Positions 4,231-64,000 of a stretch of 64,000 nucleotides of DNA are shown piece by piece. A program made the translations under genes and the position numbers. Position 1 is the first letter of the stretch. Every line of letters begins with the position of its first letter. The notes under the pieces are model-generated. The model was not told the DNA's origin. It did not search any database and saw nothing but the letters and a program-made list of their open reading frames with translations. Source of the stretch: Nemertoderma westbladi (Eukaryota; Animalia; Xenacoelomorpha); contig JAUCBJ010001864.1 of assembly GCA_032718475.1 (NCBI GenBank), forward strand, positions 77,427 through 141,426. Direction: 5' to 3'.

Positions 4231-4313
4231 ACTCGATTGGGTATGAACTATAACCATAGTGGCACATATCCCACATTGACACTGACTCATAGAAACATTT
4301 ACTTTTCCTACAG

Positions 4314-16804: not shown

Positions 16805-17060
16805 ATCAATAGAAAGTTCAAGGCCCGATATACTGTTTATTTATTTTATCTTATTTAATGTGCCTTATATTATGCCAATCACCCTCTTCCCATCTTTTTA
16901 TTTAAAATATACTTTTATTTTATTTAAGTTTATTTTATAAATTTTATGTGCTCTATCCAATTACAACTTATCGTTTTAATTATGTTAAATCAAGTGTCAT
17001 TACAATAGGCATACTTATAACCATTTACTCATTGAGTAATTAAACGTCATATTGAATCTC
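15235..17060 (+). mobile_element. 5'-truncated non-LTR retrotransposon (clade uncertain, RTE-X-like) inserted in the satellite
   Basis: RT ORF followed by an AT-rich 3' UTR. The satellite resumes in register (…AAGTTTT | ATAGGATCC…). No clear TSD or poly-A tail. Confidence 0.85.
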
Positions 17061-26445: not shown

Positions 26446-28697
26446 TGATGAATTATTTCACTATAAGATAGCATTTGTAGTTTAACTTTAACGTAAAAAC
26501 TTTCGAAAATCCGACGTATTTTGATTGAGTTACAGTAATGTAATATGCCTATTCATATTTGTACACATAAAACCCCTAGGTACTCTCGTGGCGTAGTGGT
26601 CAGATGGTTAAGGCGTTGGTTACATTACATAGGTTACGAGTTCGAATCCCAGTCGGGAAATTTGTATTTTGGGGCCATTTATTTTCGTTTGGTGCTAATT
26701 GGTAGGCCAATGAGAAGCGTACAGCGTAGCGAATGATGAGCCAGGCCAATCATAGGGCATAAATTATCTTATTGCTCAAATGTGAGGCAGTGGAAAATTC
26801 TGTTAGGATTCCATGTCCCAGATTAGTGTAAGGGCCGGACTGCGTTGAACGATGAGCTGGGCCAATCATAGGGCACGAAGCACTTCATTGCTCAATTGTG
26901 AAGCTGTGGAAAATTCTGTTTAGTTTCCATGTGCAATTTCTAGTATAAAAAGGCCGGTTTGCCTTCGGTTATCACCTTCTTTGTAAAACTCTTATTTTGT
27001 AAAATTAGTTTATTCGGTTTCTTGTTGAAACTTTATTTGATAAATCCTTTTGTAAAACTGTAAATATACTGCAATTTCCTGACATGTTTTCTTTTGGTCC
27101 GACTTCGGGACAGCCGAACACCAGGGAGATGGCAGCCTAGATCGTTAGGCCGTAAGCAACGCAGGGAAGGGATGTCCACAACACGCTAGCGCCCACATTG
27201 GATCGACCGCGCACCCCCTTTGCCCCTTCGAAATACTCCACTTGCTATGCAGCGCCCGCTTTGTGAGAAGGTAAGACTTTGTTCGACGCCCTTGCCCGCC
27301 GTAAGACCTATAGATCAGGGTAAGCGTGACATCGTACTGGACGCCGCAAATTTAGGATCAAATAATTATATCCAGACACCCCCCCTTTGTCAAGTCCTAC
27401 GAATCCCTGGGTTAACCTGTACTTCCTACAGGTGCGAACTATTGCCATTCGTCAGTACGCGAGTACATATTAGGTACGGACAGCACATGTTCCATAATTT
27501 AGTGATTCATAGCACTGACTGTTTGGTACCGGTTCGCTTTGTAGAACGTACATTAGTACCCCCCCCCCCCCCCCCTCTGTCTGGAGTTAGCTATTTGATC
27601 AGGCAAGGAGCATTTCTGCTACCGGCACACTGCTTGGCCTAGGGAGGTTTATTAATATCCTACCGCGCCTTGCCACGTACTGATAGGTATTGCTGCTAAC
27701 TACCGCAGCAACAAAGTTCTAGAATTAAATTAGTATACCAGATCAGCTAACGTACGGTAGCGATTAACCCCTATTCTTATCTTACAACCAGAATCTGGTA
27801 TTAGTGCCGATCACGGGTGTAGTTACTAACACTGTGGTTGCCCATTGGGTTGTGGATAGGAAGGAGAGAGCTTTGACGTCATTTGTGAGTATAAAGTTCT
27901 ACAAACGCGACTAGTTTATTTTAGTAGCTAGCGCACGGTATCATTTAGTCAGAAAATCACTAAAACCTAGTAAAAGGAATTACACGAAATTGTTTTATTT
28001 GTAACACACCCACACACACACGCCCTAAAACATATTGCCCTTAAAGTTCTACTAGCTATAGCGTACTATACATTACGTTAGGTGGAAATTATCTGTATTT
28101 GTAAAATTAGGATCTGATTTAGTTGCGGCAAGATAAGGAGTATTTCACTTTCGTTATTAAACTGTTGTTTGTCTGGACAACGGTATTGTTACATTTAGGC
28201 CTGACCTTTTAGACTGATTTCGTACAGGGGGATCAGTTATTGTTACATTTAGGCACGACCTTTAGGCTGATTTCGACAGGGATGATCAGCATTGTTACAC
28301 TAGGTCTGTTAACCACCTAGTTCGTATATAACCCATATAAATCACACCGCGGCAAGTTACTGTATTTAGGACTGTCAGTGATAGTTAGGATTCGCTGCGT
28401 GGGGATTGTTTTCCCGTGAGTTTGGTCTGTTACTGTAACTGTACATCTGCCTCACCGGTTAGAGGACAGGTATCCTTCTGTCTAGTACGTAGGCATTAGA
28501 CCCGCTCACGTACATAGAATAGATACAAGGCTCTGTTCCTCGCCAGTAGTCGTTTGTGTACTATATCTGTTTGTTTAGATATCCTGGACTGGGATTTGTT
28601 GTCAGATACTGTACAAGCCCGTATACATTACTAGAGTCTCATAGTAAGATACATCGTTACTAGGATCTGGTAAGCGGTATACTACTGGACCCTTACA
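26446..28697 (+). repeat. 5' LTR (2252 bp)
   Basis: Near-identical to 40237-42510 (about four substitutions and a few indels seen). Confidence 0.97.
26700..26952 (+). promoter_or_regulatory. Putative LTR U3 promoter: duplicated CCAAT-containing block and TATA box
   Basis: GGCCAAT occurs three times, two of them in diverged duplicated blocks (26735 and 26851). TATAAAAA at 26944. Confidence 0.6.
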
Positions 28698-29691
28698 GTA
28701 GGAAGTACTATATAAATTAGTGTATAGTATTGTTAGATCTGTACGCTTTGTAGTGCGTGCGCACTACAATAGTAGGAAGTATATTAGACAAATTCTGAAA
28801 TTAGCGTATAGTATAGTTTAGAATTGTTAGCTATTGAAAGTAGGAGATATTTAAAATTTAAGGTTAGTAAATTTAGTAATTTAGAACGTCCCCTGCTTCA
28901 GTAGGCTTTTAGGGTAGCTAGTACTTTCGTATTTAATATTTGACTAGCTAACAGTTAGTTTGTAGCACTTTGTTTTACGCCGTGTGTGTGCGGTGTTACT
29001 TTTCGGTACTTGAAAAGGTACATAGGGTTTAAAGACCAATTTGTATCGGTACCTAGGAAGATTTTTCGTAAGCGTAGAAGTAAAACTCTCACCTTCGACC
29101 TTTTCAGGACTCAAGGACTCATTTCTGGACCGCTTCGAGGATTAGACCGCTTTTCGCAAAGTTTGGGAGACAATAAATTCGTCCGCGCCGCCGAAAAACG
29201 GAAAGACCCACGTCCGGTTTGTATTTGGGAATTTGTACGACTGGAAGATCAAAGGAACGTAAGTTTTACGACTCGCGTCGTTCAAACTTAAGAAAGCACA
29301 GTAGTACTCAAAATTTGTGGGTTTCACTGTCTATTAGTAGTGTTGTTGGTACTTATTTTCCCGTTAGACGTTGCTGTTTGGCCTATTGTTTATACTTGTT
29401 GATCTATATTTTGTTAACGTATACCGTTATCTCACTTATTCGTACAAATTTAGCCGGTAGGCTAGATTACTACTTATTTTATTATATACTTTGTTAGTTT
29501 ATTTGTACCGGTTAGGATATATATATGATATATATATATATCAAGGTAAGTTTGACATTTGTACATTTCGACATTTTGACATTTCGACATTCTGACTTGT
29601 TGATTTATTTGTACCGGTTAGGTAAGTTCGACACTTCAACATTCAGACACTTTGACATTTTATTACCCGTACTTGACGTATATAATAAGAC

Positions 29692-32600
29692 ATGAGTGAC
29701 ACACCCCATTCGACGAGATACCCACCTACCGACTATGACTCGTGCGACCCGGACAGATCGACAGTAGACGAACCGAGAAGGAGAACCCGAGATTCCACCG
29801 ATGTCACACCGCTTGCGTCGCCGGTACCCCGAACGGAAATACCGGAAGCCGCAACGCGTGGCGACAGCAGGATCGAAGATTTCCTTACCGTCCCGCAGAC
29901 TAGATCGCGGGAACCGGACATGGTAAGTTCGACTGGAAGCCAGGAGAACGTTATTAGAAGTATAGGAGGACACATGGCCCAGATTACTCGGAACCTCGGA
30001 GAAGGTTTTCGCGTTTTACGCGAGTTAACCGCCCCGATGTCGAGATACGAGTTCTACACCTTACAGGTAAGGATAGAAAGTAGGGTACATGCCTCCGTAG
30101 ATAAACTTAAAGGTTTGCACGAACTTGCAGAGTTGCGTGGCGACAACTTTACTCAGGTAAAGATAGTAGATAAATTGGTAAGTGCGAGAGAAAGCCTTAT
30201 CCAGTTTAAGTCGGTAATAAGCTTGGCTCAACAGGAGCAGTTCGACCAACTGCTAGGTGAGTCAGTTTCGGACGCGTTGTTACAACCCGAAGAGGAAGAA
30301 GAACTCTACTGCCTGGACGGAAGGTTGGAAACGCTGACCAATTTTCTTCGTAGATGCGGCGTACCGATCGACGAACCGGAAGTCGAACCGCGAGGGACGA
30401 CGGAAGTTCTCACTACGGAAGGCTCGCGAGCCTACCAACATCCACCGCTGGATAGATCGTTTGTTAGCGTACGGAGCGACGTTGGCAACGTTGGCGACGT
30501 TAGTAGAACAGCGTCTGGAATTACTCGACAACAACAGGAGGTTGCACGCCGACAACAAGTCGCCGAGGAAGAAGCGCGACACCAGATGGCACAGATCGCC
30601 ATCGAAGGAGAGAAACAACGTAGAGAAGACGAGGCAAGAATTGCACAACTCAAGGCGCAAGCTGAATTCGAAGCATCAGAAATGCGCAGACTGGAGGAGG
30701 ACTTAGCGCGAGAAGCGGCAGCCGACGAGTTAGCACGGCAGAAAGCAGCATCCGACGTTCGTGCCAAGTTGGAGGCGCGGCAAATAAACGCTCGATTAGC
30801 TATACAGGAAGCGGAATTAGCGGCACAACAACAGGACGCAGATCGACGCGAAAGGGAGATGCAACTACAGTTCGAATTGAATCGTAGATCGCGCGAGACA
30901 GCGAACGCGCAAGCGGACCTCGAACTCGACGCGAGAGATAGATCTATGAGATCGCGAACTGGACACGACTTGTCTGCCCTGGATCGTATGGAAGCTCGAT
31001 ATCGCGGAATACAGAAGCGGATCGAGGAAGGAAGCGTGGGAGCGATAGATCGAGGAGAGGAGTTCGTCGAGGATTACTGCAAACGTTTTCCCCAAGTTAT
31101 TCCTATGCTCAAACCCACGACTCCGATAAAACCGGTCTTCGTTACGAAACCTAAGGAAATAACGCCTGTGCGTTCGACGCAAGGCAACAGGTTTGTTGTG
31201 ACGGAAATACCGCAACCTAGGGCGACTTCATCGCCAATTTTAGCAGGTAACATAACTAGTCCACCTACAGTAAGTCGTAGTCTACTTGTAGGAAGAGAGG
31301 AACCTGCGTTTATGACCATTAAACAGGTGAGTAAACCATTACAAGTTAAACCTGTGACGTGCTGTGCAAATCCAGTTATTTACAGACCGACTACGAAACC
31401 CGACTATTTCACTCGACCGTTGACACAATGTTCGACGCAACCTACGACTTCGTGGAAGGCTTGCGAGCCTACCGAACTACGGAGGAGGATGGAGGTGGGT
31501 AGTACCCACGGGATCGGACAACGTATAGCGAGACCTACGACTTCGTGGAAGGCTTGCGAGCCTACCGAACAACGGAGAGCCGTAGATTCCGGACCGCAAC
31601 GGACGAAAACGAGAGTAATACGCCGGACACGAACCCGCCAACCACCTTATCCGGACGACAGCGATTCATCTAGTGACTCGGAGTCGACGGAACGGGAAAT
31701 ATTCCGTACTGGAGCGGCGGAAGATTGCAAACGAGAGGAGAGATCGACGAACCCCTATATCGACAATCCTCCACGAGAAACACCCCAACAGAAACCCACG
31801 TTGAAACCAGCGGAAACGATCAGCGCTAAACAGTTCACCGAGATGACGGACAGAATAGCTCAACTCGAAGAACGACTCGAAGCGCAACCGTCGGATCGAT
31901 CACGAACCAGCGTGGAGTTGGAACAACCTAGACAACATCGACCACCGAGGAGAGAACAGGAGACTAGACGGACTCCGACACATCGAAAAGAAGATCCCGT
32001 TAATAATTCCTACCGACGAACAACGCGCGGAAGGGAGCGACTGGACGACGCCGCCGAACAGGGACGCGGACAGTTGGATTTGGTTAGCGAGATTGCGAAA
32101 TTCGCGGCTAGACACGGATTACCGGCACAGCAACCGCCGAAGTTCTCTGGCAACGCGAAACACTGGCGCACACTGGTAGACTACGTAGAGTCCCAGATCG
32201 CTAAGTGTGCTTTCACCTCGACGGAGAAGTTTAACTACTTGCTCCAAGTCCTGTCTGGTGAGCCGAAACGATTAGCGGAAACCTTTATTGGTGTTCCCGA
32301 TGCCTTTGAATTGGCGTACGACCGTTTGTATTCGATTTACGGCGGTAATGTCGCCATGGCTAAATCCATTATAGAAGACCTCTGCAGAGGAGGCAACATT
32401 TCGAGACCGATCGACCTTTTACGACTCGCGGACGAAATAAAGAACGCTATAGGGACTTTACGGTCCATTGGACAACTCGAGTACGCTAACGCACCGACGG
32501 TTCTCATTCGAATAATCGGTCGACTTCATCATCGACTACGACGAGAATGGCGATGCATCGAGTACCAGCGCGAAGAGGCCGGAGGGTTATTAAAACTCAC

Positions 32601-35600
32601 CGATGTCTATCAACTTATTTCACGGGAGGCCGTGATTGAGACTCGATCGAACTATACCGATCACCATATCGCGGCGGAAGGGATAACTGTTTCTGCGCCG
32701 AATCGGACTAAACCGTTTCCGACGAACGCGAAAGCCGTTACTTACGCCACCCCTACTGAGACTTCTAAAGTTCTGACGCCTATCGGCACCACGCAGCCAC
32801 GACAACAGTTGCCGGCGGACTTTGTGGGATGCTCATACTGCGAGCGGAACGGCAGAAACCATAGCGGACATAAACTACGTGGATGTCGCGCTTTTAAAGA
32901 GTTAGGGATCGAGGAAAGGAGACTCCAAATCCGATCTCTAGATTCCTGTTGGAGATGTATGAAGCCAGGACACGTCCGGAAGGATTGCCCGAGCGACGAT
33001 ACATGTTCTTTGTGTGGACGTAACCATGACGCGTTGCTTCACACAACCAGTCATACTCCGACCCGACGCTTTCGACGAGAGCATCCCGATAAAGCGGCTA
33101 GATGCGACGCGCTTTATAAGGAGCGTGCGCCGCGCGAGATCCGTACCTTTTATACCGACTGTATGGATCAGTCAGGATCATCGGACGAGGACGAGGAGGA
33201 AGACGACACTTTCTACGTGCATGCAGGTGAGGAACAGCCATCGATAACGCTCCTCACACAGAACCAATTGAAAGGGTTTAGCGTGATTCCTATAAAGATT
33301 ACCGGAACCCGAGGGAGCAAGCGTATATACGCCATCTTAGACTCTGCGTCATCGCATAGCTATGTCGACGAACAAGTAGCCGACGTAGTTACGGACTTGA
33401 GTCAAGGTAAGACTGCTCAGTATACTGTAAGCAGCATGTATGGTAAGAGAGCGATTCCTGTGACGAGAGTAAAACTAACCTTAGACACTCTTCTTTCCAA
33501 AGCGGAACACAGCAAGGAGGAGCGCTCATTACTTCCGGTAAGAAATTTGACCTTTGCAGCTACGAAGGACTTTAGTAACTTGCTCGGCCCTGTGCCAGAG
33601 CAATCACCGGAAGATCGTAAGTATTTCCGACACCTTGGAATACCGGAATGTCCTGTCAATTATCGTTCCATTGCGATGTTAATTGGGACAGACCAGTTTA
33701 ACTTACATCAGGTATGGGAGACACGCCCATCTGTTATTACAGCGGGCAACCCCTACGCATGTAGAACTCCCATAGGTTGGTATACTAGAGCACCAATACG
33801 TTCACTAGAGGTAAGTGACCAGGAGGACGACGTTTTGAGTATGTGTAGTTTATTGACTAACACGATAGATAATTCTCCTTCACACTCCCGTGGTCCAATT
33901 GTACGGACGGCACTACGACAGACTCGCGTCACTAACACAGACGCCACCGATACTGACGTAACCGATCTGGACACGACCATACGGACCTCTGACTTACAAC
34001 TACTTGCAGTAGACCAGGTTGTATTGACTACTGAAGACCTGAGGGTTGTTGCCGTGGATGACTCGATGAACGAAGATTTTGGAAGGCTTGCGAGCCTACC
34101 GAAAAATCCGAAGGTCATTGACCCCACCCACCAGGCTTCGACACCGGTCGTTGATCTTGGAAGGCTTGCGAGCCTACCGATAGATCAAGAGGTTGTCAAA
34201 CCGCCGCACGACAATTCGACGCCGACTAGTGACACCGGAAGGCTTGCGAGCCTACCAGACACATTGACACTAGCCACCGCAGCGGACGAAGACGTGGACG
34301 AGGACCATGGCGCAGTGCAAGCAGCGCTTGACCGACTGCTGACTGAACGGACCATTCAATGGTTGGAACAGGACTCAGCAGAACCCGGTAGTTACGAGAC
34401 CGCTATGTCAGAACAGGAAAAACGGTCATTAAATATTATGAGAGATACCATTCGCCAGACCGCGAATGGCCACTATGAGGTTGGTATGTTGTGGCGCGAT
34501 GGACAACCTAAGCTCGTTAACAATTACCCGCTTGCTTTGAGGCGACTCAAATCAATAAGGCAGCGATTGTTGCGAGACGAGACGGCCCATATGCAATACA
34601 ATGCACAACTTCAGACGTATCTCCAAAGGGGATACGCCATTAGGATGTTAAATCCTGAGGTAACCACAGACCAGACATATTACCTGCCACATCATTTTGT
34701 TCGACACCCGGACAAACCTGGCAAGGTGCGTGTAGTCAACGACTGCGCTGCACTTTACCAAGGGATGTCTATGAATAGCGAACTGATGGACGGGCCGAAT
34801 ATGAATAATTACCTCATGGGAGTCCTAATGCGTTTTAGACAACGCAAAGTGGCTTTCACCTGTGACGTAGAGGCCATGTTTCACCAGGTTAAGGCTTTGG
34901 AGCGGGACAGGGACAGTTTGAGGTTTCTTTGGTATCCGGACGGAAACTTACAACTTCCGCCAGAAACTTACCAAATGCAGGTAAGAGTATTCGGAGCCAG
35001 GGACAGCCCCAACTGCACCATGTACGCCTTAAAGCAGACAGCATTAGACAGACGAGACCAATTTGACCCAGAAGTAGTTCGGACCGTGGAACGAGACTTC
35101 TACGTGGATGACGGCCTCAAGAGTTGTGACACCTTGGAGCGCGCTACAACCGTAGCACACCAACTCCAGGATTGTCTCGCTGAGGGCGGATTTCACCTGA
35201 CGAAGTTCGCTTCCAACGAACCCGAACTGGTGAACTCATTTGACCCGATGGATCGTAGCGGAGGTGACTTGGACTTAGACTTAGAACCTCTGCCGACGAC
35301 CAAAGTATTAGGACTTAGTTGGGACCCTAACACCGACAATTTTAGGGTACGTGTAAGGTCCAACGACCAGACTAGACCTCTCACAAAGAGGACTTGCTTA
35401 TCGACCATGAGTCGATTGTATGACCCATTGTGTTTCATTAGTCCAGTGATCCTACATGCCAGGATCATACTCCGCAGCATTTGGCAAGCCGGACTGGAAT
35501 GGGACGATCCCATCCCAGAAAAGTTAGCTGAGCGATGGAGGGACTGGGAAGCCCAACTGACGTTCCTACAAGACTATACCATACCAAGGGTATACCATAC

Positions 35601-35688
35601 GCGGCTAGTTTACCCGGAATTCGTTTTTTATCGGCACATTTTTTGGATTAGGAGCCAGTGCGAAATCACGCGAACCCGAAATCATTAG
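29692..35688 (+). CDS. BEL/Pao Gag-protease-RT polyprotein (1998 aa), truncated before RNase H
   Basis: PPKFSG Gag motif; Cys/His knuckles (CWRCMKPGHVRKDC, CSLCGRNHDALLH); protease ILDSAS; RT YLPHH, RVVNDC, DVEAMFHQV, FYVDD, KVLGLSW, YDPL. Homology is lost after DYTIPRVY. Confidence 0.95.
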   Translation: MSDTPHSTRYPPTDYDSCDPDRSTVDEPRRRTRDSTDVTPLASPVPRTEIPEAATRGDSRIEDFLTVPQTRSREPDMVSSTGSQENVIRSIGGHMAQITRNLGEGFRVLRELTAPMSRYEFYTLQVRIESRVHASVDKLKGLHELAELRGDNFTQVKIVDKLVSARESLIQFKSVISLAQQEQFDQLLGESVSDALLQPEEEEELYCLDGRLETLTNFLRRCGVPIDEPEVEPRGTTEVLTTEGSRAYQHPPLDRSFVSVRSDVGNVGDVSRTASGITRQQQEVARRQQVAEEEARHQMAQIAIEGEKQRREDEARIAQLKAQAEFEASEMRRLEEDLAREAAADELARQKAASDVRAKLEARQINARLAIQEAELAAQQQDADRREREMQLQFELNRRSRETANAQADLELDARDRSMRSRTGHDLSALDRMEARYRGIQKRIEEGSVGAIDRGEEFVEDYCKRFPQVIPMLKPTTPIKPVFVTKPKEITPVRSTQGNRFVVTEIPQPRATSSPILAGNITSPPTVSRSLLVGREEPAFMTIKQVSKPLQVKPVTCCANPVIYRPTTKPDYFTRPLTQCSTQPTTSWKACEPTELRRRMEVGSTHGIGQRIARPTTSWKACEPTEQRRAVDSGPQRTKTRVIRRTRTRQPPYPDDSDSSSDSESTEREIFRTGAAEDCKREERSTNPYIDNPPRETPQQKPTLKPAETISAKQFTEMTDRIAQLEERLEAQPSDRSRTSVELEQPRQHRPPRREQETRRTPTHRKEDPVNNSYRRTTRGRERLDDAAEQGRGQLDLVSEIAKFAARHGLPAQQPPKFSGNAKHWRTLVDYVESQIAKCAFTSTEKFNYLLQVLSGEPKRLAETFIGVPDAFELAYDRLYSIYGGNVAMAKSIIEDLCRGGNISRPIDLLRLADEIKNAIGTLRSIGQLEYANAPTVLIRIIGRLHHRLRREWRCIEYQREEAGGLLKLTDVYQLISREAVIETRSNYTDHHIAAEGITVSAPNRTKPFPTNAKAVTYATPTETSKVLTPIGTTQPRQQLPADFVGCSYCERNGRNHSGHKLRGCRAFKELGIEERRLQIRSLDSCWRCMKPGHVRKDCPSDDTCSLCGRNHDALLHTTSHTPTRRFRREHPDKAARCDALYKERAPREIRTFYTDCMDQSGSSDEDEEEDDTFYVHAGEEQPSITLLTQNQLKGFSVIPIKITGTRGSKRIYAILDSASSHSYVDEQVADVVTDLSQGKTAQYTVSSMYGKRAIPVTRVKLTLDTLLSKAEHSKEERSLLPVRNLTFAATKDFSNLLGPVPEQSPEDRKYFRHLGIPECPVNYRSIAMLIGTDQFNLHQVWETRPSVITAGNPYACRTPIGWYTRAPIRSLEVSDQEDDVLSMCSLLTNTIDNSPSHSRGPIVRTALRQTRVTNTDATDTDVTDLDTTIRTSDLQLLAVDQVVLTTEDLRVVAVDDSMNEDFGRLASLPKNPKVIDPTHQASTPVVDLGRLASLPIDQEVVKPPHDNSTPTSDTGRLASLPDTLTLATAADEDVDEDHGAVQAALDRLLTERTIQWLEQDSAEPGSYETAMSEQEKRSLNIMRDTIRQTANGHYEVGMLWRDGQPKLVNNYPLALRRLKSIRQRLLRDETAHMQYNAQLQTYLQRGYAIRMLNPEVTTDQTYYLPHHFVRHPDKPGKVRVVNDCAALYQGMSMNSELMDGPNMNNYLMGVLMRFRQRKVAFTCDVEAMFHQVKALERDRDSLRFLWYPDGNLQLPPETYQMQVRVFGARDSPNCTMYALKQTALDRRDQFDPEVVRTVERDFYVDDGLKSCDTLERATTVAHQLQDCLAEGGFHLTKFASNEPELVNSFDPMDRSGGDLDLDLEPLPTTKVLGLSWDPNTDNFRVRVRSNDQTRPLTKRTCLSTMSRLYDPLCFISPVILHARIILRSIWQAGLEWDDPIPEKLAERWRDWEAQLTFLQDYTIPRVYHTRLVYPEFVFYRHIFWIRSQCEITRTRNH

Positions 35689-35822
35689 GCAAAATGGGTT
35701 GGGGTTTAGAGCAGAGTTGAGCCAAAAGCCAACAAACTCTGGAGTCACCTCCCATCTAACCTCTATTTTGTGCTTCATCTAGTAGAAACGTAACGATATG
35801 TAACCGCATATATTCGTATACG

Positions 35823-38800: not shown

Positions 38801-39577
38801 GAATTGTTGGAGGTATTGGATATATTGCCGTTGGACAGTGGATTCAAAGTTGTGCGGGACTATTTCTTACAAGTGCACCCGGACAACAAGAATACTTAGA
38901 ACTTTCAAACTGTGGTGAACAAGATTACCGCCGGAGAATTCGATAAACTGCGAGTTGAACAGCGGAATCGAGGAGCCTGGCATTCGATAGCTTGGGCATA
39001 CCGGAGCGCATTTTATCACAAACGCGTAACCTCGTGCATTCTGGACGAGACCGACGTTTTGCGTGAGACTGGCTTCAAGGCCACGCCGTTAGCGGAGAAG
39101 ACGCGTCACCCACAGGATGATCAGCAATTTCGTATACTCAAAGCCCAGAAGGCCGGACAAGAGATTAAGAAGATAGTGAATGTCGCCGAGAGGACGACAT
39201 CGAAATCGCAAATCCGGATGACTCGGGGCACGGTTTCCCTTGCTAGAGAACCACACGGAGGGACAGGATACGCTTTGACTGAACCCATTAGGATTCAAAC
39301 GACGTCAGAGAGCGAGGTGTCAACGGACGGAACAGTCCTACCCTTTCGACTTCCTCCTAGCGTTGTAGAAACTCGATCCGATGTTAAGTCGACAGTTGGA
39401 ATCGGACGAGGATTTAGAGGATTGAGCGCACGACGGATGTGCGAAACTCCCGTCGTCCCCTTTCCTAGCGTTTTGGAACCACCGACGACTCGACGCCGAA
39501 GTCCGAGCCCAGTTCGACCTCGACCACCCCCCAATCGCACTAGAGGACGTGGACGAGCCCGCTCAGCGAAGGAATAG
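35823..39577 (+). CDS. Accessory ORF2 of the BEL element: putative DEDDy 3'-5' exonuclease plus CCHC zinc knuckles (core ORF 35999-38899; probable N-terminal frameshift and in-frame TAG at 38897)
   Basis: ISFDDE, TIQI, LPKAVRDVVLDKSIVKIGSGVRDDL, YVDT, W...P....QYYLAIE; then CGRCGATGHHAKKC, CNWCGDQRSHTFYTC, CTYCNIKGHRASEC. ORF 38912-39577 is in the same frame as the core ORF. Confidence 0.7.
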
Positions 39578-40236
39578 GAAGCGAGTGGAAGGAAGGCTTG
39601 CGAGCCTACCGATTTGGATATTATATTTGGATATTATATTTGGATGTTATATTTGGATATTATATTTGGATATTTTATTTGGATATTTATATTGGACATT
39701 ATGTTTGAACGTTGGGTTTGGAAGAACGAGATATGGAAAGGAAGGCTTGCGAGCCTACCGTTAGCAATTAGTGCTCAGGAGAAGATATCCAGACCAGCAG
39801 GACGAACTTTTAAGATCGTCAGGAGGACTCTTTAAGACTTATTTGAAGGATTTTAGCGCATTATGTTTATTTTATATTTAGACTGATTTAATTTGGTGAA
39901 TTTATTATGTATATTTACAATATATAAAGATTTATCGAAAGAGTTTGATTTATTTGTTTGATTTGTTTGATTTATTTGTTCTGATTTGTTTAATTTGCTT
40001 ACCTTGATAACCGAAAGCCTTTTTTTTGTATTTTAGGCACTAAAGTTAATTAGTAAATTTGTATTTGTATGTACGATCGATTGTATTTACGCCGTATCTG
40101 CAATATTAAATATGCAATAATTAGATAGTGATTATATTTTATATTTTAGGCCCTACCAGTAAATTTAGAAATAGTTTGTAAATATTTTATATTTCGATTG
40201 GTGAAAACAGTCTTACTTACTGTTTTCATGGAGCGG

Positions 40237-42510
40237 TGATGAATTATTTCACTATAAGATAGCATTTGTAGTTTAACTTTAACGTAAAAACTTTCGAAAA
40301 TCCGACGTATTTTGATTGAGTTACAGTAATGTAATATGCCTATTCATATTTGTACACATAAAACCCCTAGGTACTCTCGTGGCGTAGTGGTCAGATGGTT
40401 AAGGCGTTGGTTACATTACATAGGTTACGAGTTCGAATCCCAGTCGGGAAATTTGTATTTTGGGGCCATTTATTTTCGTTTGGTGCTAATTGGTAGGCCA
40501 ATGAGAAGCGTACAGCGTAGCGAATGATGAGCCAGGCCAATCATAGGGCATAAATTATCTTATTGCTCAAATGTGAGGTAGTGGAAAATTCTGTTAGGAT
40601 TCCATGTCCCAGATTGTAAGGGCCGGACTGCGTTGAACGATGAGCTGGGCCAATCATAGGGCACGAAGCACTTCATTGCTCAATTGTGAAGCTGTGGAAA
40701 ATTCTGTTTAGTTTCCATGTGCAATTTCTAGTATAAAAAGGCCGGTTTGCCTTCGGTTATCACCTTATATTATGTCACTTCTTACCACTTTGTAAAACTC
40801 TTATTTTGTAAAATTAGTTTATTCGGTTTCTTGTTGAAACTTTATTTGATAAATCCTTTTGTAAAACTGTAAATATACTGCAATTTCCTGACATGTTTTC
40901 TTTTGGTCCGACTTCGGGACAGCCGAACACCAGGGAGATGGCAGCCTAGATCGTTAGGCCGTAAGCAACGCAGGGAAGGGATGTCCACAACACGCTAGCG
41001 CCCACATTGGATCGACCGCGCACCCCCTTTGCCCCTTCGAAATACTCCACTTGCTATGCAGCGCCCGCTTTGTGAGAAGGTAAGACTTTGTTCGACGCCC
41101 TTGCCCGCCGTAAGACCTATAGATCAGGGTAAGCGTGACATCGTACTGGACGCCGCAAATTTAGGATCAAATAATTATATCCAGACACCCCCCCTTTGTC
41201 AAGTCCTACGAATCCCTGGGTTAACCTGTACTTCCTACAGGTGCGAACTATTGCCATTCGTCAGTACGCGAGTACATATTAGGTACGGACAGCACATGTT
41301 CCATAATTTAGTGATTCATAGCACTGACTGTTTGGTACCGGTTCGCTTTGTAGAACGTACATTAGTACCCCCCCCCCCCCCCCCCCCCTCTGTCTGGAGT
41401 TAGCTATTTGATCAGGCAAGGAGCATTTCTGCTACCGGCACACTGCTTGGCCTAGGGAGGTTTATTAATATCCTACCGCGCCTTGCCACGTACTGATAGG
41501 TATTGCTGCTAACTACCGCAGCAACAAAGTTCTAGAATTAAATTAGTATACCAGATCAGCTAACGTACGGTAGCGATTAAACCCTATTCTTATCTTACAA
41601 CCAGAATCTGGTATTAGTGCCGATCACGGGTGTAGTTACTAACACTGTGGTTGCCCATTGGGTTGTGGATAGGAAGGAGAGAGCTTTGACGTCATTTGTG
41701 AGTATAAAGTTCTACAAACGCGACTAGTTTATTTTAGTAGCTAGCGCACGGTATCATTTAGTCAGAAAATCACTAAAACCTAGTAAAAGGAATTACACGA
41801 AATTGTTTTATTTGTAACACACCCACACACACACGCCCTAAAACATATTGCCCTTAAAGTTCTACTAGCTATAGCGTACTATACATTACGTTAGGTGGAA
41901 ATTATCTGTATTTGTAAAATTAGGATCTGATTTAGTTGCGGCAAGATAAGGAGTATTTCACTTTCGTTATTAAACTGTTGTTTGTCTGGACAACGGTATT
42001 GTTACATTTAGGCCTGACCTTTTAGACTGATTTCGTACAGGGGGATCAGTTATTGTTACATTTAGGCACGACCTTTAGGCTGATTTCGACAGGGATGATC
42101 AGCATTGTTACACTAGGTCTGTTAACCACCTAGTTCGTATATAACCCATATAAATCACACCGCGGCAAGTTACTGTATTTAGGACTGTCAGTGATAGTTA
42201 GGATTCGCTGCGCGGGGATTGTTTTCCCGTGAGTTTGGTCTGTTACTGTAACTGTACATCTGCCTCACCGGTTAGAGGACAGGTATCCTTCTGTCTAGTA
42301 CGTAGGCATTAGACCCGCTCACGTACATAGAATAGATACAAGGCTCTGTTCCTCGCCAGTAGTCGTTTGTGTACTATATCTGTTTGTTTAGATATCCTGG
42401 ACTGGGATTTGTTGTCAGATACTGTACAAGCCCGTATACATTACTAGAGTCTCATAGTAAGATACATCGTTAGTAGGATCTGGTAAGCGGTATACTACTG
42501 GACCCTTACA
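40237..42510 (+). repeat. 3' LTR (2274 bp)
   Basis: Copy of 26446-28697, preceded by a short purine-rich GGAGCGG. Confidence 0.97.
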
Positions 42511-46557: not shown

Positions 46558-49500
46558 TCAAGGGCAATTCTTCCAGCAGGCACTCTCCCATTGCTCCCCT
46601 TGTAGGTCCTGTAGGATTTGCCACACTCTCATTGCCAATTCCAACTCTCTAGGAATTGATTCTCCCTCCTCCACCACCCTAAAATCGGGTCTTCCAGCCG
46701 CCTTCTTGATTTCCTCATGGTCCCCTGGCAGCAAAATGCCACCCTTCATCTTGTCGTCACCTGGCGGTAGAATGTAAAGAAATCGGAAGAATAGATAGAA
46801 CAGAATGGATAATACTAATCCTATCCCTTTCCACCCTGTCTTCTTATTTGACCTCCCCCTTTTCGCTATGTCTCTCAAACGGACCGGCGTCTCCTCCGGA
46901 CACTTCTCCGGACATCTCGCCGTCCACTCTTCTCCATCCTCATACCCTACCGGTGTCGTCATACCGGTAGGATTCACATCCTTGTTCCATCCCATCGTCT
47001 CTAAGTCTTCCGCGTCAAATCCATTCTCCTCCGTACACTCTCTTGCTGTTACTTCCCCTCCTAACTGATCTACCGACGGTATTTCTCTGGAACTATCCTC
47101 TATCATTTCAACACACTCCACTATGCGTGGTTCCAGATCCATACCCAACTCTTGGTATCCTTCCCCGGGTCGCTTCTCACATGGGACCTCCCCATTGCCC
47201 GTCCCTGGTTTCTCCTTTACGTCCTCGACGGTGCCTGATAGCATGCACCCTGATGTCTCCGACACCCTGGATGGAATCTTGGTTTTAATTGGGCCGCTAA
47301 GCATCCATCCGAACGGCGTGAGAATCGCCGTCGGATCCCGCTGCTTATTCTCTCTGAATTTGGTCCTTACTCCCTCGTGGGCCGTCGGACAATCCATTCC
47401 GACTATGATGGATACCTTCGAGACGTCCACTTTTGGTATTGAGAAATCAATATCGTCCAGGAACCGGTATTGCTCGACCTCGATCTTAGTTGGTCACCTG
47501 GCGTTTATGTTAATCGATTCTATAATCTTAATGGGGTCGATGGTCGCCCCATAGTCACATCCCGGTGCTATTGCTGATATCTCGCACTGTCCCGTTCTCA
47601 TCTCCAGGACCTCATCCTTACTCGAGATAGTAGTTACCGCCATCCTACTCGGCCTCGTCTGTAACCCTATCTCCTCGGCCACCCAATTCTCCACCAGTGT
47701 GAAGGCTGCTCCGCTGTCGACTAGCATCAGTGTTGTGACTGATCGGCCGCCCCTTCCTGTTATCCTCACTGGTATTACCCCGAGTAGTACTTTCCTCTTT
47801 CTCCTTGCTCCCGTCGTGCTCGTAACCATGGTTTGGCCTCCAGTCTCATCGTCTCCTATTGGTGATTCCACTCTCCGGATCTGTGTCCTTCTACCACGCA
47901 TCGATGACATAGTCCGTTTGCGTCCGCGTAGGCTACACGATCTTGTTTAGGCAACGCTTGCCAATGCTTACAACTCATGGTCTTATGGGTCCCATCCCTA
48001 TGCAATTGACATTCGTATCCTGGATTGTAGCGCTCCCTGTATAGCCCTTCACGTATTGCCCATAGATTCATGTCTACTGGTTTAGTGTTTTGGTTATTTG
48101 GACTCAGCCTACTGGGTGTGTTGGGGTTATATTTATTTGTGTTGTTATTTTGTTTCTGTCCCTGCCACGGTGTGGCCCTACTATCAACTAACTGTGGACT
48201 GTGCGACTGTCTCACTCTCGGGAATGGATCTGCCGGATTATGTTCCGGTTTAGGCCTGTTGTATTCGGTCTTCGGCACCTTCCCCAAACTATCCTCACTG
48301 TAGACTGGGTCTGTAATCAACTCTGCTTCGTAATTGAGGAAGTTCGACATTTCCTCTAGGCCCGGTTCCGCACCTTTCTTCTCCCGGGTGGAGAAGGCGA
48401 TCTTCATCCATTTGTTGCGTAGCCAGATTGGCAGTGCCTGCGCTATCATGGTGATGTTATTAGATGCGTTGAGTTCGTATGGCGCATCTAGCATCTTCAG
48501 CACAATTGACGCCTTCTCAACCTTATTCGCAAAGGTCTTTATACTAACAGGGTTATCCTGTAGGCCACCCGATGTTATTCCCCTCAGGGTCTGCTGAATG
48601 ATCTTGGCTGGGTGTCCGTATTCCCTGTCTAGGGCCCGCCATGCAGTCGTGAAGCCACCCTCGATGCCCTGATACTGCCTCACGATGTCGTACGCTGGGC
48701 CTCCTGTGTATACCTGTAAATATTTTAGGCACTCCGCCTGCGTCAGGTTCTTAGTTAATATTTCGTTGCTGTACATGCGTCGGAATTGCAGGTATTCTTC
48801 CGGTCTGCTTCCGTCGAATTTAAATGGCTCAACTGGTGGTAGCTCGATCCTGGTCTTGAGCGCATCGATAAGTGTTGCCATTCCCATCGCCTGTGCTTCC
48901 AATGGGTTCGAGGGATGCTGTACAGATTCTCCTGTTGGGTGCGGTCCGCCCGTCGGGCCCGTCGATCTTTTCTGTGTTGGATATATCCTTGGGGGTAGCG
49001 GCCCCCTCCATATCTCCGTGTCGCATGACCTGTTCTGGTCCAGGGGGTTCGATGTTCTTATTCCCGGCTGAGTGTATTGCTGATATTGTAATGGGGGAAT
49101 GTCACCCTGTCCCCCCCCCCACCAGTGTTATGTTTGGTACTGGGGTTGATGTTAATATATTGGGGCCCATACACCTATCTGCAATAACTCCCCCCTCCCC
49201 TGGATATATGTCATGTCCCTGCATATTATAGTCATACTGGTGTGCAGGTACCGGTATAGGCCTATCGACTTCCTGCCTACCTACCGGTATGTACGCCGCG
49301 ACTTCCGGATCTAATCCCGATGCTCGCGCTACCCTATCGCCTACACTATCTCTCCCAGCATGGCCTATAGTATGTGCAGTGAGGCCTACAGTATGTCCTG
49401 CAGTCTGCCTGTGTCCTTCTGGACCGAAGTTTAATCTTCTCGAATATTCCAAGAAGTCCTCCCCGTGACTACCGTACTCTCGATCGGCAGCTATATCCTG

Positions 49501-50957
49501 TCGGGAAGTTTCTCTTCGATCCCCTCTCCTGTTCTTGTCCTTGTACCGGTACATTCTGTACCCTTCTCCTGGTGTGTGGTGCTTCTCTCCAGGGTTATGG
49601 CAATTTCCCAGAATTCGACCCCACTGACTCCCTAACTCCATCTCTACTACCGATGGTTCACTGTCCGTCCTTGCTCTCCGGTTGCTCGTAGCAACGCTTC
49701 TTCTATTCTCTTCACGCTCTTGTGATCTCTTCGACCTCCCGGTTAAACTCCACTGTTCTTCTTCTCTCTTCCGACTGACGTCGTCTCGCTCGCCAACTCT
49801 CGGCGTCAACATCTCTCTCTCTGCCCGGTTGGACGCTCCTTGGGATACTCGCAATCCCCCTACTATTCTCCGTCGTCAGTTGCCGCGGTTCACTTAACTC
49901 GCCCCGCGCATTATCCGCCGACGCTTGTGGGACATTCTCTGCCCCCCCCCCCTCTCGCCACTGATCTCCCGTGGTGGGGCGCCCGTAGCCCCCCCCCCCC
50001 CCCCCCCCACTCGCCACTTCTTACTTCACTACCTCTTACTTCGCTTCTACGCCCCTCTTGTGGGACATTCTCTGCCCCCCCCCCCCCTCTCGCCACTAAT
50101 CTCCCGTGGTGGGGCGCCCGTAGCCCCCCCCCCCCCCCCCACTCGCCACTTCTTACTTCACTACCTCCTACCTCGTTTCTACGCCCCTCTCTAGTGGACG
50201 CACTGTCTCTACTGCGGCTGGGTCTGTTCACCCCCGCCTCTCCCTCTACTACTGCGTGGCCTTGCAGGCTCCCGTCGGGTTGACTCACCCCCGCTCCTCC
50301 CTGTGTACTAACTATGTGGCCTTGCAGGCTCTCGCTGGTCGGACCACCTATGCTTGCTGCGTTCATATTAATAGCACCATTATCAACAGTATTATTGCCT
50401 AAATTATTTAAATTATCCTGTTCGGAATTCGGATTATTATTCAAATTATTTTGTATATTTAAATTGGAATCGGGATTATTTTCCTCGTTTGAATTAAAAT
50501 TATTATTTAGATTATTCTGCGTATTTAAATTAGGGTTATTATTTGAATTATTTTGTGTATTTAAATTCGGATTATTTGGATTATTTTCTATATTTAAGTT
50601 AAGATTATTCGGATTTAAATTATTATTGCCGGGTAAAACATTATTTCCTGCAATGAAAGTTTGATTAGGGTTGTCCACTACGGTACTATTAATATTAATG
50701 CCCTCTAACGTATTATTATTACCCCCCCCCCCCCCCGCCCGTATGGTTACACCAGTCCTGGGTCTGTCATCCGGTGCCTGTAAGTGGGGTATTAACGAAT
50801 GTTTCCATTGCTTCTGGCTCCTCGTAAATGCTACCCGAGCCAGCCTCACTCTCAGATAATCCCAATTGCGCCAGTTCTAGTCGGTGCTTTTGCATAGCCT
50901 GATATTGCATAAGCCCCCTTAACCGGGCATGCATATCATCCCGCATGCGCTTTCCCG

Positions 50958-50989
<32 letters not shown>

Positions 50990-52115
50990 GCAAACTCTGG
51001 TTCGCTAACTCTGTTTCTCTCGCCACCCACTCTCTACGCTCGCTCTCTACTCTCACCTCCCGCTCTCTATGCTCGTTCTCTACTCTCATCTCTCGCTCTT
51101 TACGCTCATTCTCTACTCTCGTCTCTCGCTCTTTACGCTCGTTCTCTACTCTCGCCTCTCGCTCTTTTTGTTCCTCTCTCTTCTTGCTCTCTACAGTTCT
51201 TCGCCATCCTCTCGGCCCTCTCTCTACACTCCCTCGCCAACTCTCTCTCTTTCTCTAACAACGCAGTTCCCTCATCCAATCTTTCTGGTCTAGCGCCACC
51301 ATGTCTAGTTGACACGCCAGATCTATCTCTAACACCCTTCTTGCTTTTGCGGAGGATGTAGCGGACTTATCGGTCGCGACGGACTCCCATCGCCTCTCTG
51401 TCCTACTAACTTTCCCCCGCTTTCTGGGGTTCTCGTTAATTGATGAGACCGAATCCTCGGGGTTAACCTCGGGTTCGCCCTCGTGCGGATCCGCCCAACC
51501 CACTAACTTAATTCCCCTGGCATCCACTAAGTACGGCCCTACATACACTACTTCAGGCTCCATAACCACGGATCGCCACAGTTCGAATAGTTCGGTGGCG
51601 ACCCCCCTCGCTCTCTCACTCACCAGTTCTCCCTGCCCAAAACGGACCAAATACCGAAAATGTTTGTTCGACTCACCTAGCCGTTGGTGTAACTTAGGCT
51701 GGTTTACCTTTCCTCCCTCTCTGTCCTCCTTTAATAGTTTCTTCGTGGCGTTGTAGGCCCGTCGTAGCCGATCGCTCGTCCCGACGTCCCCTTCGCCGAC
51801 ATCTCCTCCTCCTCTCCTCATTCGGCGTTGTACCGGCGGCCCCACCGTCACCGATCCAGTGGGCCATCCATCGCCCTTGGCCTGTGGCTGGCCGGCAACT
51901 CTGGTACTCCGACCGCCGTCGTGCGTCGACTCGTCCATCCCTCGTGGTTGACGGCCGCCCTCCGCTTGGGGTACCGGATCGTCCCTCGTCGGCGAATCCG
52001 GCGTCACAGGTCGATACCGTCGTGTCGCAGCCTCGCAGATCGTTTGGTTGGTGTCGTCCATGGTCCGCAGCAGTGTCCTCTCTCCCTCTGATAATTGGGG
52101 TTCTCCTTGGCTCAT
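46558..52115 (-). pseudogene. Frameshifted BEL/Pao gag-protease
   Basis: Consecutive ORF pieces 51255-52115, 49911-50849, 49102-49854, 47856-48902 (Gag core, Cys/His knuckles), 47494-47910 (DSG protease) and 46558-47430. Confidence 0.82.
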
Positions 52116-52178
52116 CCTCTTTACTTTCTCCTGGCTTCTTAGCAGTCACAGTTCAGTGGTTGTTGGCTATTGTTTTAC

Positions 52179-52854
52179 TGTGATGGGATCAGAGATCCCG
52201 ACTGGGTAGGTTGTTTCATACGCGTCACCGCAGGCTGGGGTGGTGTCACTGATTGCTTGGCCGAGGCCGTTGGAAAAAGCATTCAGAGTTAATGTTGTCC
52301 TTTGGCGGTCTAATATAATAGTGATAGCACAGTTAATATGATGTTAATATGATAGCGGATGACAATGTTGCTTGGTACCGGTAATAGTAAACTGAATACA
52401 GCCAATGTTGTTGACGGTGACGGTAAAACAATATTACCCATCTGCACTGAAACTGGGTAACTAACTAAACTGAATTACAAACCGGTAGCAGGAGATAATA
52501 TATGATTGATATACCAATATTACTTCACTCCTACGCTACCTTGGCCTGCTACCTAGTGGATGCTCTCCTTTGCTCTTATTGGCTAATAACCTACTTCTCA
52601 CCCTTACACTCTCTGGGAGTGTTTCCCCTTTGCTGCTAGCCTCTACTAGCTGTGTCCCTTCCGAGGTGGTTTGACCTCTAACCTTCCTTTGTGTGTGGCT
52701 TCGGGGTTTGTGTTGCCCCCCCCCCCCCCCCCCCCAAATGTTGGTTGTGATACCAGATTGATATTGCTAATCGCGTATCTCCAACATATTGCTGAAAATG
52801 CCACCATCCCATTTGCTGGAGGGTGGTAATGAGGCAGAATTGAATCCGCTTACA
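52179..52854 (-). repeat. 5' LTR (676 bp) of the minus-strand BEL element
   Basis: TG...CA ends are defined by homology with the TSD-bounded solo LTR at 6022-6596. It lies 64 bp upstream of the gag ATG (52115). Confidence 0.85.
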
Positions 52855-57497: not shown

Positions 57498-57989
57498 TGT
57501 CATGAACGGGATGAATGTATATTCTTCTGATTGTTGAACCGCCCATGAACAGTTTAAAAAACACAATATTATGATTACATATTTCTCTAATTTAATAATT
57601 ATCTAACTAATTACAAAAATGACACATATTACAACGACAATTAGCAACTGGTTTTACCATCACCGCACCAACACTCTATGTATACTCCTATTATTGTAGC
57701 AATACTAATTGACCCTTTTAATTAGGACGAACAGCAGGGGCATGTCTTCCAAACGATGAGGTAATTCTAGCGTTGTACAAACAATGTTAATATTACAATG
57801 TAACAATTAACAATTAACAATGTTAATGTTAATAATATAGACGATACTGTATGTATATCAATGATATAATGTATGAGTTGATGTCAATGAACCCCTGCTG
57901 TTGCCAACTACTGTACTATGCACATTAACACTAAATCATTAACGAAAACAAACTTTATTTCCCTACTTGAATATATATATTTTATGACA
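57498..57989 (-). repeat. Putative 3' LTR (492 bp)
   Basis: Terminal inverted repeat TGTCAT...ATGACA; PPT AAGGGGGAG (minus strand, 57990-57998) abuts it; the left end coincides with loss of RTE homology. Confidence 0.75.
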
Positions 57990-58188
57990 CTCCCCCTTGA
58001 AACTAATAGTTTCAAATCATAACCTTCACCACGTGGGATTATACATTATTGCATTTAAAAATTTTCAAAAAATAACTAATATACAGTAAACAATATTTTA
58101 TATTGTTTAGTGTAATTAATTGCACATTATAATTTTCAAATATGATACAGTATGAAGAATGTTCGTATTGTATTTCTTTATGACTATT

Positions 58189-61100
58189 TTAATCTATTTG
58201 TGGTGTATTTGTAGTAGATACCTCTAATGGATATAATTGTAGTATGGATTTAACGAGTGATCTCGCTTCCTTATTTCTGGGCGCTATTGAAATTCTCGCA
58301 GACCGCACACGGCCGTCCCTTGAAACAATTAATTCATCTATCCTACACAACTTCCACATGCAACGGGGAATAGACTCGTTATGTAATAGACACATAGCGC
58401 CTACCTTCGGGATGATGTCTGATTTGGGGGCTACGTTGTTACTAATGTGAGAAGAACGTAACTCTCTCAAATAATCTGTACGCCACAACTTCCACACTGA
58501 ATTTTTCGCTGCCTCTTGATATTTAACCCTATCAAGTATCATTCTTCTTGCCGATTTAGATTTAGATTCAGGGTTTGGTAGAATCCCTTTATCTGATAAA
58601 TCTGGTATTGCACAGAGCCGTTTTCCTACAAGAAAGTGACTCGGGGTGAGAGGCTGTACATCGTCATCTAACTTACTGTAAACATATGTGATTGGTCTGC
58701 TATTTACTGATGCTTCTACCGAAAGCGCAACAGTATGTAACTCGTCAAGTGATAAGACAGCTCGTCCTATTAACTTACGAATTCCGGATTTGCAAGTGCC
58801 AATTAAACGTTCTATGAATCCATACGCTGCTGGATTGTTTGCAATATTGTTTTCCCAGGTAATATTATGATCTCCAAAAATCCTGACTACCTCAGGATCT
58901 GTCAAGAATATTCGGTACGCTCTTAGCTCCTTGGCACTGCGCTTAAAGTTTGTAGCATTATCGCTAAACATAATACTCGGTATTCCTCTTCTGGCTATGA
59001 ATCTGAGAAATGCGTTAATGAAAGCGACCGCTGATAAAGACGTTACTACTTCCAAATGAACGGCTCTTATTACAGCACACGTAAACATAACAATCCACGC
59101 CTTTTCTGTTGGTTGTATTGTCTCAGTCTCGGTCTCGGTTGGTTTGGCAACTGTATGAAGTGGTCCACAAAGATCGACTCCGCAATGATCAAAGGGGCCG
59201 CGCGTTTCAATCGTTCTAGAAACTGGCAAGGGGCTGATTGCTGGCATTGTATAGGGTTTTCCTTGAAACCTTTTACAAATGACACACGAAGACAATATTT
59301 GTTGAATTTTCCGTCTAGCCGATGGTATCCAGAATCTCTCACGAACCTCTACTAGTGTGTCTCTCACTCGGGAATGTGAAACGCGCTCGTGTGAGTTTAA
59401 TATGACGAGTTTTGTAAAATGGTCACCTGGTGCAAGAAGAATAGGATTTCTGGTATGGAATGGGATAGTATCATTGATTATTCTACCCTGACATCTGATA
59501 ATACCTAATTCATCTAACACAAGATTTAATTGTTTAACAACGTTAGGACACTGAGTTGATTTATCACGAAGATAAGACAATTCCCGAGAATAGTTTACAC
59601 GTTGTGAATCTAGAATTATTTTAATTTCGGCTAAATGTAGTTCCTTGGCTGTTAAGTATGGTAATAACACGGGGTCTTTGTGTAAACGTTTTGCTTTAAT
59701 ATTTTCTACAAACCGTAGAATCCAAGCTATTCTGTGTTGTACGTCCCTTTTTGTACTGAAATTATTTACATTAATTATCTGAGATAATCCTGTATCGTCT
59801 GTATTGATTGTCTTAATTGTCGTTGTCATTATGAGGGTGGAGTTTATATCTAACAGAGCACACTTGGATACTTGAGCCTCAGTAATCACTGGTGACTCTG
59901 GCCAACCAGATTCCTCCCCCGATATAAAGTCTGGACCCTCATACCATAGTTTGTTATTTAATAATTTGTCTGGTGCCATTGTCCTTGTTGGAATGTCCGC
60001 TGGATTACACGGCCCTGGACACCACCTCCATTCTGCTCCTAATTTCTGTGTTACGTCACGGATTTCCTGTACTCTATTGTGTACAAATTGTTTGTGAGTA
60101 TTATTTGTTGGTCGTATCCAATACAGTACGTCTAATGCATCGGTCCAAAATACTGAACGTGTTATTTGTAGTACCAAACCTTGATACACTAACAGTACTA
60201 GTCTTACCAGTATTAGTGCGCCAAGTAATTCTAACCGTGGTACTGATTGTTTTTGTTTAGGTGCCAGTTTAACTTTACTACATAGTAAGTTTGTAGTGTA
60301 AGTTCCGTCAGAGTGTTCTACTCTAGTGTAAATGGCACATGCGTATAATTGTTTGCTTGCGTCTGCGTCTGAATTTGTCTGCTTTGCTTGCGTATTTCTA
60401 CAGTGTTATCATCTGTATTACCTAGAATACATCGAGGTACTGTAATGCTATTTAAAATTTCTAAACTGTTTAACCATGATTCCCATTTGTTCAATAAATG
60501 AGTAGGTAGTGGTTCGTCCCAGTCTACCTTACTGTTAGCTAATTCCCTAAATACGATTCTTAAGGGCGTTAAAAAGCGAGATATAAGCCCTAATGGATCG
60601 TAGATCCGAGCCGTTAGTTGCAATATAGCCCTTTTCGTTGGTTTTAGATTCTTAACAAAGGATATGACGTGGTCAAGGTTATACCCAAAGTAATCCTTAC
60701 TTATATCCCACACTTGTCCCAAAATCCTTGTTTCACCGCTAGGTGGTGTTGATAAACACAATGACTCCTTTGCGTACGTCTGGTCTCCTCTGATAATATT
60801 GGTACAGAATTTGTTTTTAAACTTACGATTTTGGGTTTTTCAAATTGATCTATAATTTGTTGTAGCTCGACAGAATTTGTAAGCCATTTTCTTAAATTAA
60901 ATCCACCCTCTAACATCAATTGCTTTGCATTCTCATACAAGAGAAGACCAGACGACACAGTGTCTGCACCAGACGCAAAGTCATCTACATACATATCCCG
61001 CAATAGTTTTTCAATTACAATACGTTTGTTTTCGTTGGCAGTATCTAATTTACTTTGTAAATGTTTCCTGACAATAGAAAATAAAATATCTGGTGATGGT

Positions 61101-63905: not shown

Positions 63906-64000
63906 GTTTGCTGATGTTGGGAAATCCTGTGTTGAACCTGTGAATTAATATGTAAGCGACAGAAGCAATCCTGTTTTGCGTCGTACTGGTGCTTACTGTA

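Follow-up and report, generated by a model that had tools for sequence, protein, structure and literature searches.

We suggest that the BEL/Pao clade containing a degraded retroelement on the minus strand of the window (the whole 64,000-nt stretch of DNA analysed here) very probably primes minus-strand DNA synthesis with its own RNA, by whichever route that RNA is supplied. On inspection of the minus strand, the LTR of this element (element 2), CCCATCACA, stops at 52179 and is followed by GTAAAACAATA at 52178–52168, an 11-nt primer-binding site (PBS) without TGG that lies flush with the LTR end. The complement of the PBS, TATTGTTTTAC, lies in the same LTR at 52433–52423 of the minus strand and represents the predicted self-primer, intronless in this element. 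Each of the three sequences occurs once on the minus strand of the whole window, and the duplex between PBS and LTR segment comprises exactly 11 bp, broken off at the LTR end. Under a first-order Markov model, 2.4e-4 exact 11-nt complements are expected by chance in the 610-nt LTR. Letters and coordinates are all as given in the original prediction, which had described an 11-nt PBS/LTR complementarity flush with the LTR end and lacking TGG.

As the window contains no second LTR of element 2, the LTR end had been an assumption in that prediction, until contig depth was consulted. We aligned contigs from four public runs with the same species label (X1, X2, X3 and X5) to positions 52125–52475; X1 and X2 come from one sample, and cover in X5 was too low for depth comparison. 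Summed contig depth was 6929 at 52184 versus 573 at 52176 in X1, 11521 versus 524 in X2 and 4952 versus 542 in X3, a 9- to 22-fold drop across 52179 with the LTR side higher. In addition, three of the 32 contig pieces listed end at 52179–52180 and continue into other sequence, as expected for 3' or solo LTRs. The LTR end is thus independently fixed by contig depth at 52179, the boundary that the prediction had assumed, and no TGG lies behind it. The 5' LTR (52179..52790, minus strand) probably has its 5' end somewhere within about 52740–52790.

Contigs of the element 2 family also carry variants, all of them unphased. In the PBS, position 52176 is variable in 3–40% of depth and position 52174 in 8–12% (X1–X3), and among the variants listed both still pair with the primer, as G-U. 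The sole primer variant among those listed, at 52425 (4–9% of depth), affects the pairing partner of 52176, and the variants of both positions together, unphased as they are, would form a Watson-Crick pair. No intron was seen in the family among the contig rows listed, most of which are partial.

A second element of the window, element 1 (26446–42510, plus strand), presents the same arrangement with its own, different PBS letters, as had been noted before. Repeat comparison delimits a 5' LTR of 2252 nt (26446..28697) and a 3' LTR (40237..42510), after which a 5-nt target duplication follows; the two LTRs are 98.6% alike. The PBS (28698..28708) is 11 nt long, flush with the LTR and without TGG, and the predicted self-primer lies at 27419..27429, with a second copy at 41228–41238; 8.6e-4 exact 11-nt complements are expected by chance under the first-order Markov model. 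By domain search, a Gag-PR-RT frame (29689..35688) terminates within the RNase H region, its PR, RT and part of RH being 40–45% identical to proteins with PF05380, and no integrase was found in the element. In place of the RNase H end and integrase, positions 35990–39577 of the plus strand hold a 969-aa frame with weak zinc-knuckle matches only, followed by one stop and a 225-aa frame. Given the likeness of its LTRs, element 1 probably moved recently with help in trans, despite the missing parts.

Element 2 has broken gag and protease frames (46558..52145, minus strand), with DUF1759 in 47856–49127 (E 7.8e-11) and an aspartyl protease in 47494–47946 (Asp_protease_2, E 8.9e-7), that is, a BEL-type Gag and protease. 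Its RT, RNase H, integrase and 3' LTR are absent from the window. The two elements have no nucleotide similarity except one 25-nt chance-level match, and their Gag proteins reach 23% identity over 217 aa. ARAGORN found no tRNA genes in either element, Rfam yielded no matches at E 0.1 over 26400–53400, so that no described ribozyme or tRNA mimic is present in that interval, and an IMG/VR scan returned no relative.

An alignment of the element 1 RT region with 29 homologues was used to fetch related loci, comprising the closest 80 of 552 from metagenome contigs and 23 of 23 from genome bins. Animal BEL/Pao contigs (L081–L103) were found inside prokaryotic genome bins, probably through host contamination. 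Seventeen loci with LTR ends set by the divergence of their two LTR copies, together with the two window elements, gave an unbiased set of 19 in which LTR ends were fixed without use of complementarity; L007, L018 and L054 are related within this set, as are L082 and L084. Loci with a repeat ending at a contig end or off the LTR end were left out, including L049, L073, L078 and L102, each of which later gave a 10–12-nt match. We searched eight offsets for a contiguous complement or one split across GTR...YAG. A match of 10–15 nt to the own LTR was present in 15 of the 16 elements without TGG, contiguous in six cases and in the other nine existing only when a GT-AG intron within the LTR is bridged. 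Among the controls, 10 nt was reached by 8 of the 328 cross pairs and by 5 of the 152 shifted windows. None of the three TGG tRNA-type elements matched its own LTR (longest match 6). L088, the lone exception without TGG, attains a match of 8; it too has an intron of this kind, across which the duplex contains one mismatch, present in both of its LTR copies. These proportions and the recurrence throughout the clade bear out the expectation of a conserved mechanism beyond coincidence. Being exactly 11 nt long, flush with the LTR and beginning with GTA, which the prediction had stressed, is the commonest state; elsewhere in the 19-element set the duplex ranges from 10 to 15 nt and starts 0–4 nt from the LTR end.

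Over all 103 loci, a match of at least 10 nt was found in 45, most of them chosen with the match in view and several representing one family from different samples, a TGG site in five and a near match in one; in the remaining 52, which were looked at in part, needed parts were missing or no clear call emerged. A further scan, of 23 of these loci, gave a match of at least 10 nt in four, of just 9 nt in five and none in 14; of these 14, five were later resolved (L049, L051, L022, L030 and L102), unlike L006. The LTRs cannot be aligned between families, and PBS and splice junction change together in the close relatives L007, L018, L054 and L004. In a hand-picked set of 33 (31 loci and the two window elements), 32 primers have AC or AT as their last letters. 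The primer 5' side and PBS 3' side paired above cross controls in this set, 12 of 33 falling in the best tenth, with a mean energy of the extended duplex of −6.4 versus −4.2 kcal/mol in the cross controls. An imperfect extension of the duplex may therefore exist in part of the clade; it is found in neither window element (ranks 0.62 and 0.25).

The primer is split by a predicted intron in 25 of these 33 elements, with introns of 71–451 nt, donors reading GTRAG in 22 of the 25 although the search required GTR only, acceptors that are pyrimidine-rich among those listed, and 3–8 nt of the primer contributed by exon 2. Because of these split primers, most elements escaped a scan for contiguous complements only. 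None of the 25 intron-bearing contigs contains the spliced form as DNA. In L060, the 3' LTR is intronless and a 5' piece, 88% alike to it, has an acceptor at the corresponding position; intron-bearing and intronless LTR states occur at the primer on one contig (1–144 and 6918–6928), so that one family has both intron states. Intronless elements occupy six or more places on the RT tree, often beside split sisters (L024/L036, L045/L063 and L060/L010), for which reason we favour an ancestral intron that would have been lost repeatedly; both window elements are intronless members of the self-matching clade. In element 1, an AG stands directly after the primer in a pyrimidine-rich, acceptor-like context (27271–27431, plus strand, and the corresponding part of the 3' LTR), and GTAAG donors lie upstream of the primer at 27271, 27301 and 27320. 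If spliced there, element 1 would lose its primer with the intron, opposite to its relatives.

The RT tree (FastTree, midpoint-rooted) was built from 103 RT regions without reference elements, L100 and L103 having been dropped as too short. The TGG-type loci form a group with L101 and a third BEL element of the window (support 0.99) that stands apart from all self-matching elements, and element 1 diverges close to the base of the self-matching clade (support 0.63). The third element (57530–63944, minus strand) has an integrase and a PBS outside the window; its 3' LTR begins near 57989 behind a purine tract and appears to be interrupted by a non-LTR element. For element 2, the best Gag and protease matches are L079, L069, L068 and L006, with no TGG-type locus among them. 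Element 1 is thus placed by RT and element 2 by its Gag and protease matches, and both fall into the self-matching clade. This placement contradicts the earlier reading of the two elements as an independent replication: judged from these relationships, they share the self-match trait by descent and show co-variation within one lineage, not separate origins. Elsewhere in the window, positions 1–4300 and 11700–18750 hold two arrays, one a 46-nt tandem array and the other spaced at 53 nt with an inverted block inside it.

The original prediction had also pointed to hairpins beside the PBS and the primer. Tf1 reportedly needs flanking hairpins, and a U5-IR-like stem-loop beside the PBS is reported for the Tf1/sushi group. 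Both hairpins are present in element 2, and neither shows clade-wide conservation by folding z-score. The U5 hairpin GGGATC-TCT-GATCCC (52185..52199, minus strand) has 6 bp and lies 6 nt ahead of the PBS, with a pair probability of 0.98–1.0 in the leader; a stem-loop at this place is not enriched across the 33 elements (mean z −0.3, below −1 in six). The 7-bp hairpin TTACCCA/TGGGTAA (52434..52460, minus strand; 52460–52454 with 52440–52434) abuts the primer 5' side and has a local z of −2.0, yet its pair probability is 0.0 in the whole folded leader, and a primer-side hairpin is not general either (mean z +0.41, below −1 in 2 of 32 elements). Contig variants, again unphased, point to a possible alternative 6-bp helix of 52442–52437 with 52187–52182 (52182..52442, minus strand): about 95% of depth shows a different letter at each of positions 52440 and 52184, which are complementary in either state. 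This is at most suggestive of the helix, with 52200 or 52224 as equally possible partners of 52184. Pairing of the primer 5' flank with U5 is not general, reaching the best tenth in 5 of 33 elements (element 2 rank 0.05).

How might the primer be supplied? On balance, we somewhat favour a cis route, in which the primer comes from the 5' leader of the same RNA. The 11-nt LTR segment, likely situated in that leader, would fold onto the PBS, be cut at its 3' edge and then prime minus-strand DNA instead of a tRNA. The cut would be made by the RNase H of the RT, as in Tf1, supplied in trans for the defective element 2; a 3' hydroxyl at the duplex edge would suffice for priming, and the cut would define the functional R. 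The primer would retain a 5' extension, of about 40 nt in element 2 and 90 nt or more in several relatives, and plus-strand copying of the primer would rewrite the PBS in every cycle, so that the match is kept. Among intron-bearing relatives, the spliced leader alone could prime, and the intron, lying upstream of the cut, would have to come from an LTR copy left unspliced, namely the 3' one; the element 2 lineage would have lost the intron. More broadly, we consider it fairly likely that in an animal BEL/Pao branch the tRNA has been replaced by a spliceosome-assembled primer, with splicing licensing reverse transcription and distinguishing the LTR copies, and with the window elements having lost the intron.

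A candidate promoter in the element 2 LTR (52468..52582, minus strand) comprises what we take to be CCAAT (52582–52578), TATA-like (52502–52495) and initiator-like (52473–52468) motifs, the latter two spaced by 31 nt; if transcription starts at the initiator-like motif, the primer would occupy nt 39–49 of the RNA. None of the 33 elements has a TATA-like box at −24 to −38 of the primer, a weak negative because most of the 33 lack a strict TATA, and the strict boxes, present in seven of the 33, lie 122–475 nt upstream of the primer. As no TATA-like box lies about 30 nt upstream, the primer is probably internal and not 5'-terminal, unlike that of Tf1.

Several points tell against the cis route. 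An internal primer leaves the 11-nt limit unexplained, and a strong intron must stay unspliced in the 3' LTR copy. In the modelled leader of element 2, the 11-bp PBS/primer helix is absent from the minimum-energy fold and has a pair probability of 0.23–0.28. Moreover, the hairpins beside primer and PBS lack conservation by z-score, the L088 duplex contains a mismatch and both window elements are defective. In L082 and L084, a poly(A) signal stands directly behind the primer in the LTR; under the cis model, the repeat then available for strand transfer would be very short.

Two other routes of self-priming also fit, and sequence does not separate the three. One, which we regard as unlikely, works in trans: a short RNA starting and polyadenylated within one LTR, spliced if it has an intron, would be packaged and cut, the intron being handed down through genomic RNA that remains unspliced. 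This would account simply for intron retention; LTR depth exceeds PBS depth 9- to 22-fold, solo LTRs are abundant, and a poly(A) signal lies within 100 nt after the primer in 24 of 33 elements. However, a strong cap-proximal intron would have to persist in genomic RNA, co-packaging would be needed, neither AATAAA nor ATTAAA occurs in the 400 nt that follow the element 2 primer, and no precedent was found in the accessible part of the literature searched. Less likely still is the use of the 3' LTR copy, the RNA end folding back onto the PBS to be cut and to prime, splicing having taken place in the 3' copy but not in the 5' one. Being upstream of the poly(A) signal, the primer is present on the RNA 3' end, and terminal introns are readily spliced; against this, the first DNA would remain tied to the template end, and here, too, the accessible literature offered no precedent.

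The duplex might instead be structural or regulatory (in dimerisation, packaging or a translation switch), with another host RNA or a tRNA fragment priming at the same site, much as half-tRNA primers are described for Ty1/copia in the accessible text of PMC6317226. We hold this to be improbable: the PBS letters vary freely among dozens of families, in each of which they follow its own LTR or splice junction; no single host RNA could match letters so varied; and the duplex begins 0–4 nt from the LTR end, the place at which minus-strand DNA has to start. Chance, or a misplaced LTR end concealing an ordinary TGG site, has a negligible probability although element 2 is degraded with a single LTR and AT-rich sequence gives occasional 10–12-nt matches (8 of 328 cross pairs), being ruled out by the depth-fixed boundary with no TGG behind it, the expectation of 2.4e-4 and the own-LTR test in 19 elements with its clade-wide recurrence.

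If self-priming by the element's own RNA holds, a large share of the BEL/Pao elements of aquatic invertebrates would prime themselves; their primer would be internal and, in the majority of lineages, a product of splicing, and self-priming would have a further independent origin. Host splicing would be tied directly to the start of reverse transcription, and the survival of an intron through retrotransposition would be explained. Annotators would have a reason for the failure of PBS finders on these elements, and BEL/Pao priming would become testable through RNA ends and strong-stop DNA.

Among BEL-type elements, Cer7 of Caenorhabditis elegans is said to carry its own primer RNA, reportedly a tRNA-like segment in the 3' internal region, outside the LTR and unspliced. 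Cer7 would thus share an own primer with the present clade and differ in the primer's location outside the LTR and in being unspliced. Taken together, the elements described here resemble the Belpaoviridae (Semotivirus) in having a Gag with DUF1759, domains for protease, RT and Pao peptidase/RNase H, LTRs of the form TG...CA and a 5-nt target duplication (PMC8742986); of the PR-RT-RH-IN order, element 1 retains PR, RT and part of RH. The ICTV profile describes that family as tRNA-primed, its 18-nt PBS being complementary to tRNA-Arg or tRNA-Gly of the host, and its replication as poorly understood (PMC8742986). Such a site fits the TGG-type loci L094, L095, L098 and L099 and not the self-matching clade; an 18-nt tRNA PBS is present in L094, L095 and L098 and absent from the 16 elements without TGG, including both in the window. 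Judged from its domains, element 2 is a broken BEL/Pao element lacking the tRNA-PBS trait described for its family, a trait that is typical in the ICTV profile and not a phylogenetic criterion. Neither BEL/Pao self-priming nor a splice-junction primer was found in the accessible part of the literature searched: the accessible text of PMC3118150 and PMC554778 has no occurrence of primer, PBS or tRNA terms, that of PMC6238403 none of primer or tRNA, and that of PMC8220671, PMC6934838 and PMC3601003 no passage on either subject.

Self-priming as such has precedents outside BEL/Pao. According to the accessible text of PMC6317226, it is reported for Tf1/sushi, Tcn1 and the plant TAR copia elements (Houba, Osr-1); for the TAR lineage and Tcn1 it was predicted, as here, from PBS-LTR complementarity, so that the trait seems to have arisen more than once. 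Those elements are plant copia or gypsy, in contrast to the present clade, and an intron-split primer is not described in those portions of the source (PMC6317226). The closest mechanistic parallel is provided by Tf1 and Tf2 of Schizosaccharomyces pombe, Tj1 and the Tf1/sushi group, which the available portions of PMC7175516, PMC5341516 and PMC4600332 describe as self-primed and without a tRNA site. In Tf1, the RNA's initial 11 bases pair with the PBS, and RNase H cleaves between positions 11 and 12 (PMC7175516 and PMC5341516, as far as accessible). Like these elements, the present clade has about 11 nt of its own LTR RNA complementary to a PBS beside the LTR end and lacks a tRNA site. Unlike them, the window elements carry BEL-type domains, Tf1 being a Ty3/gypsy chromovirus of another superfamily; cleavage is shown for Tf1, according to the accessible sources, and only inferred for the BEL/Pao clade; the primer, judged by promoter-like motifs and introns, is probably internal and not 5'-terminal as in Tf1; and a primer built across an intron is not described for Tf1/sushi in the accessible text of the three papers (PMC7175516, PMC5341516, PMC4600332). 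The best reading of this comparison is that the element 2 clade probably works like Tf1 self-priming, without itself being Tf1/sushi.
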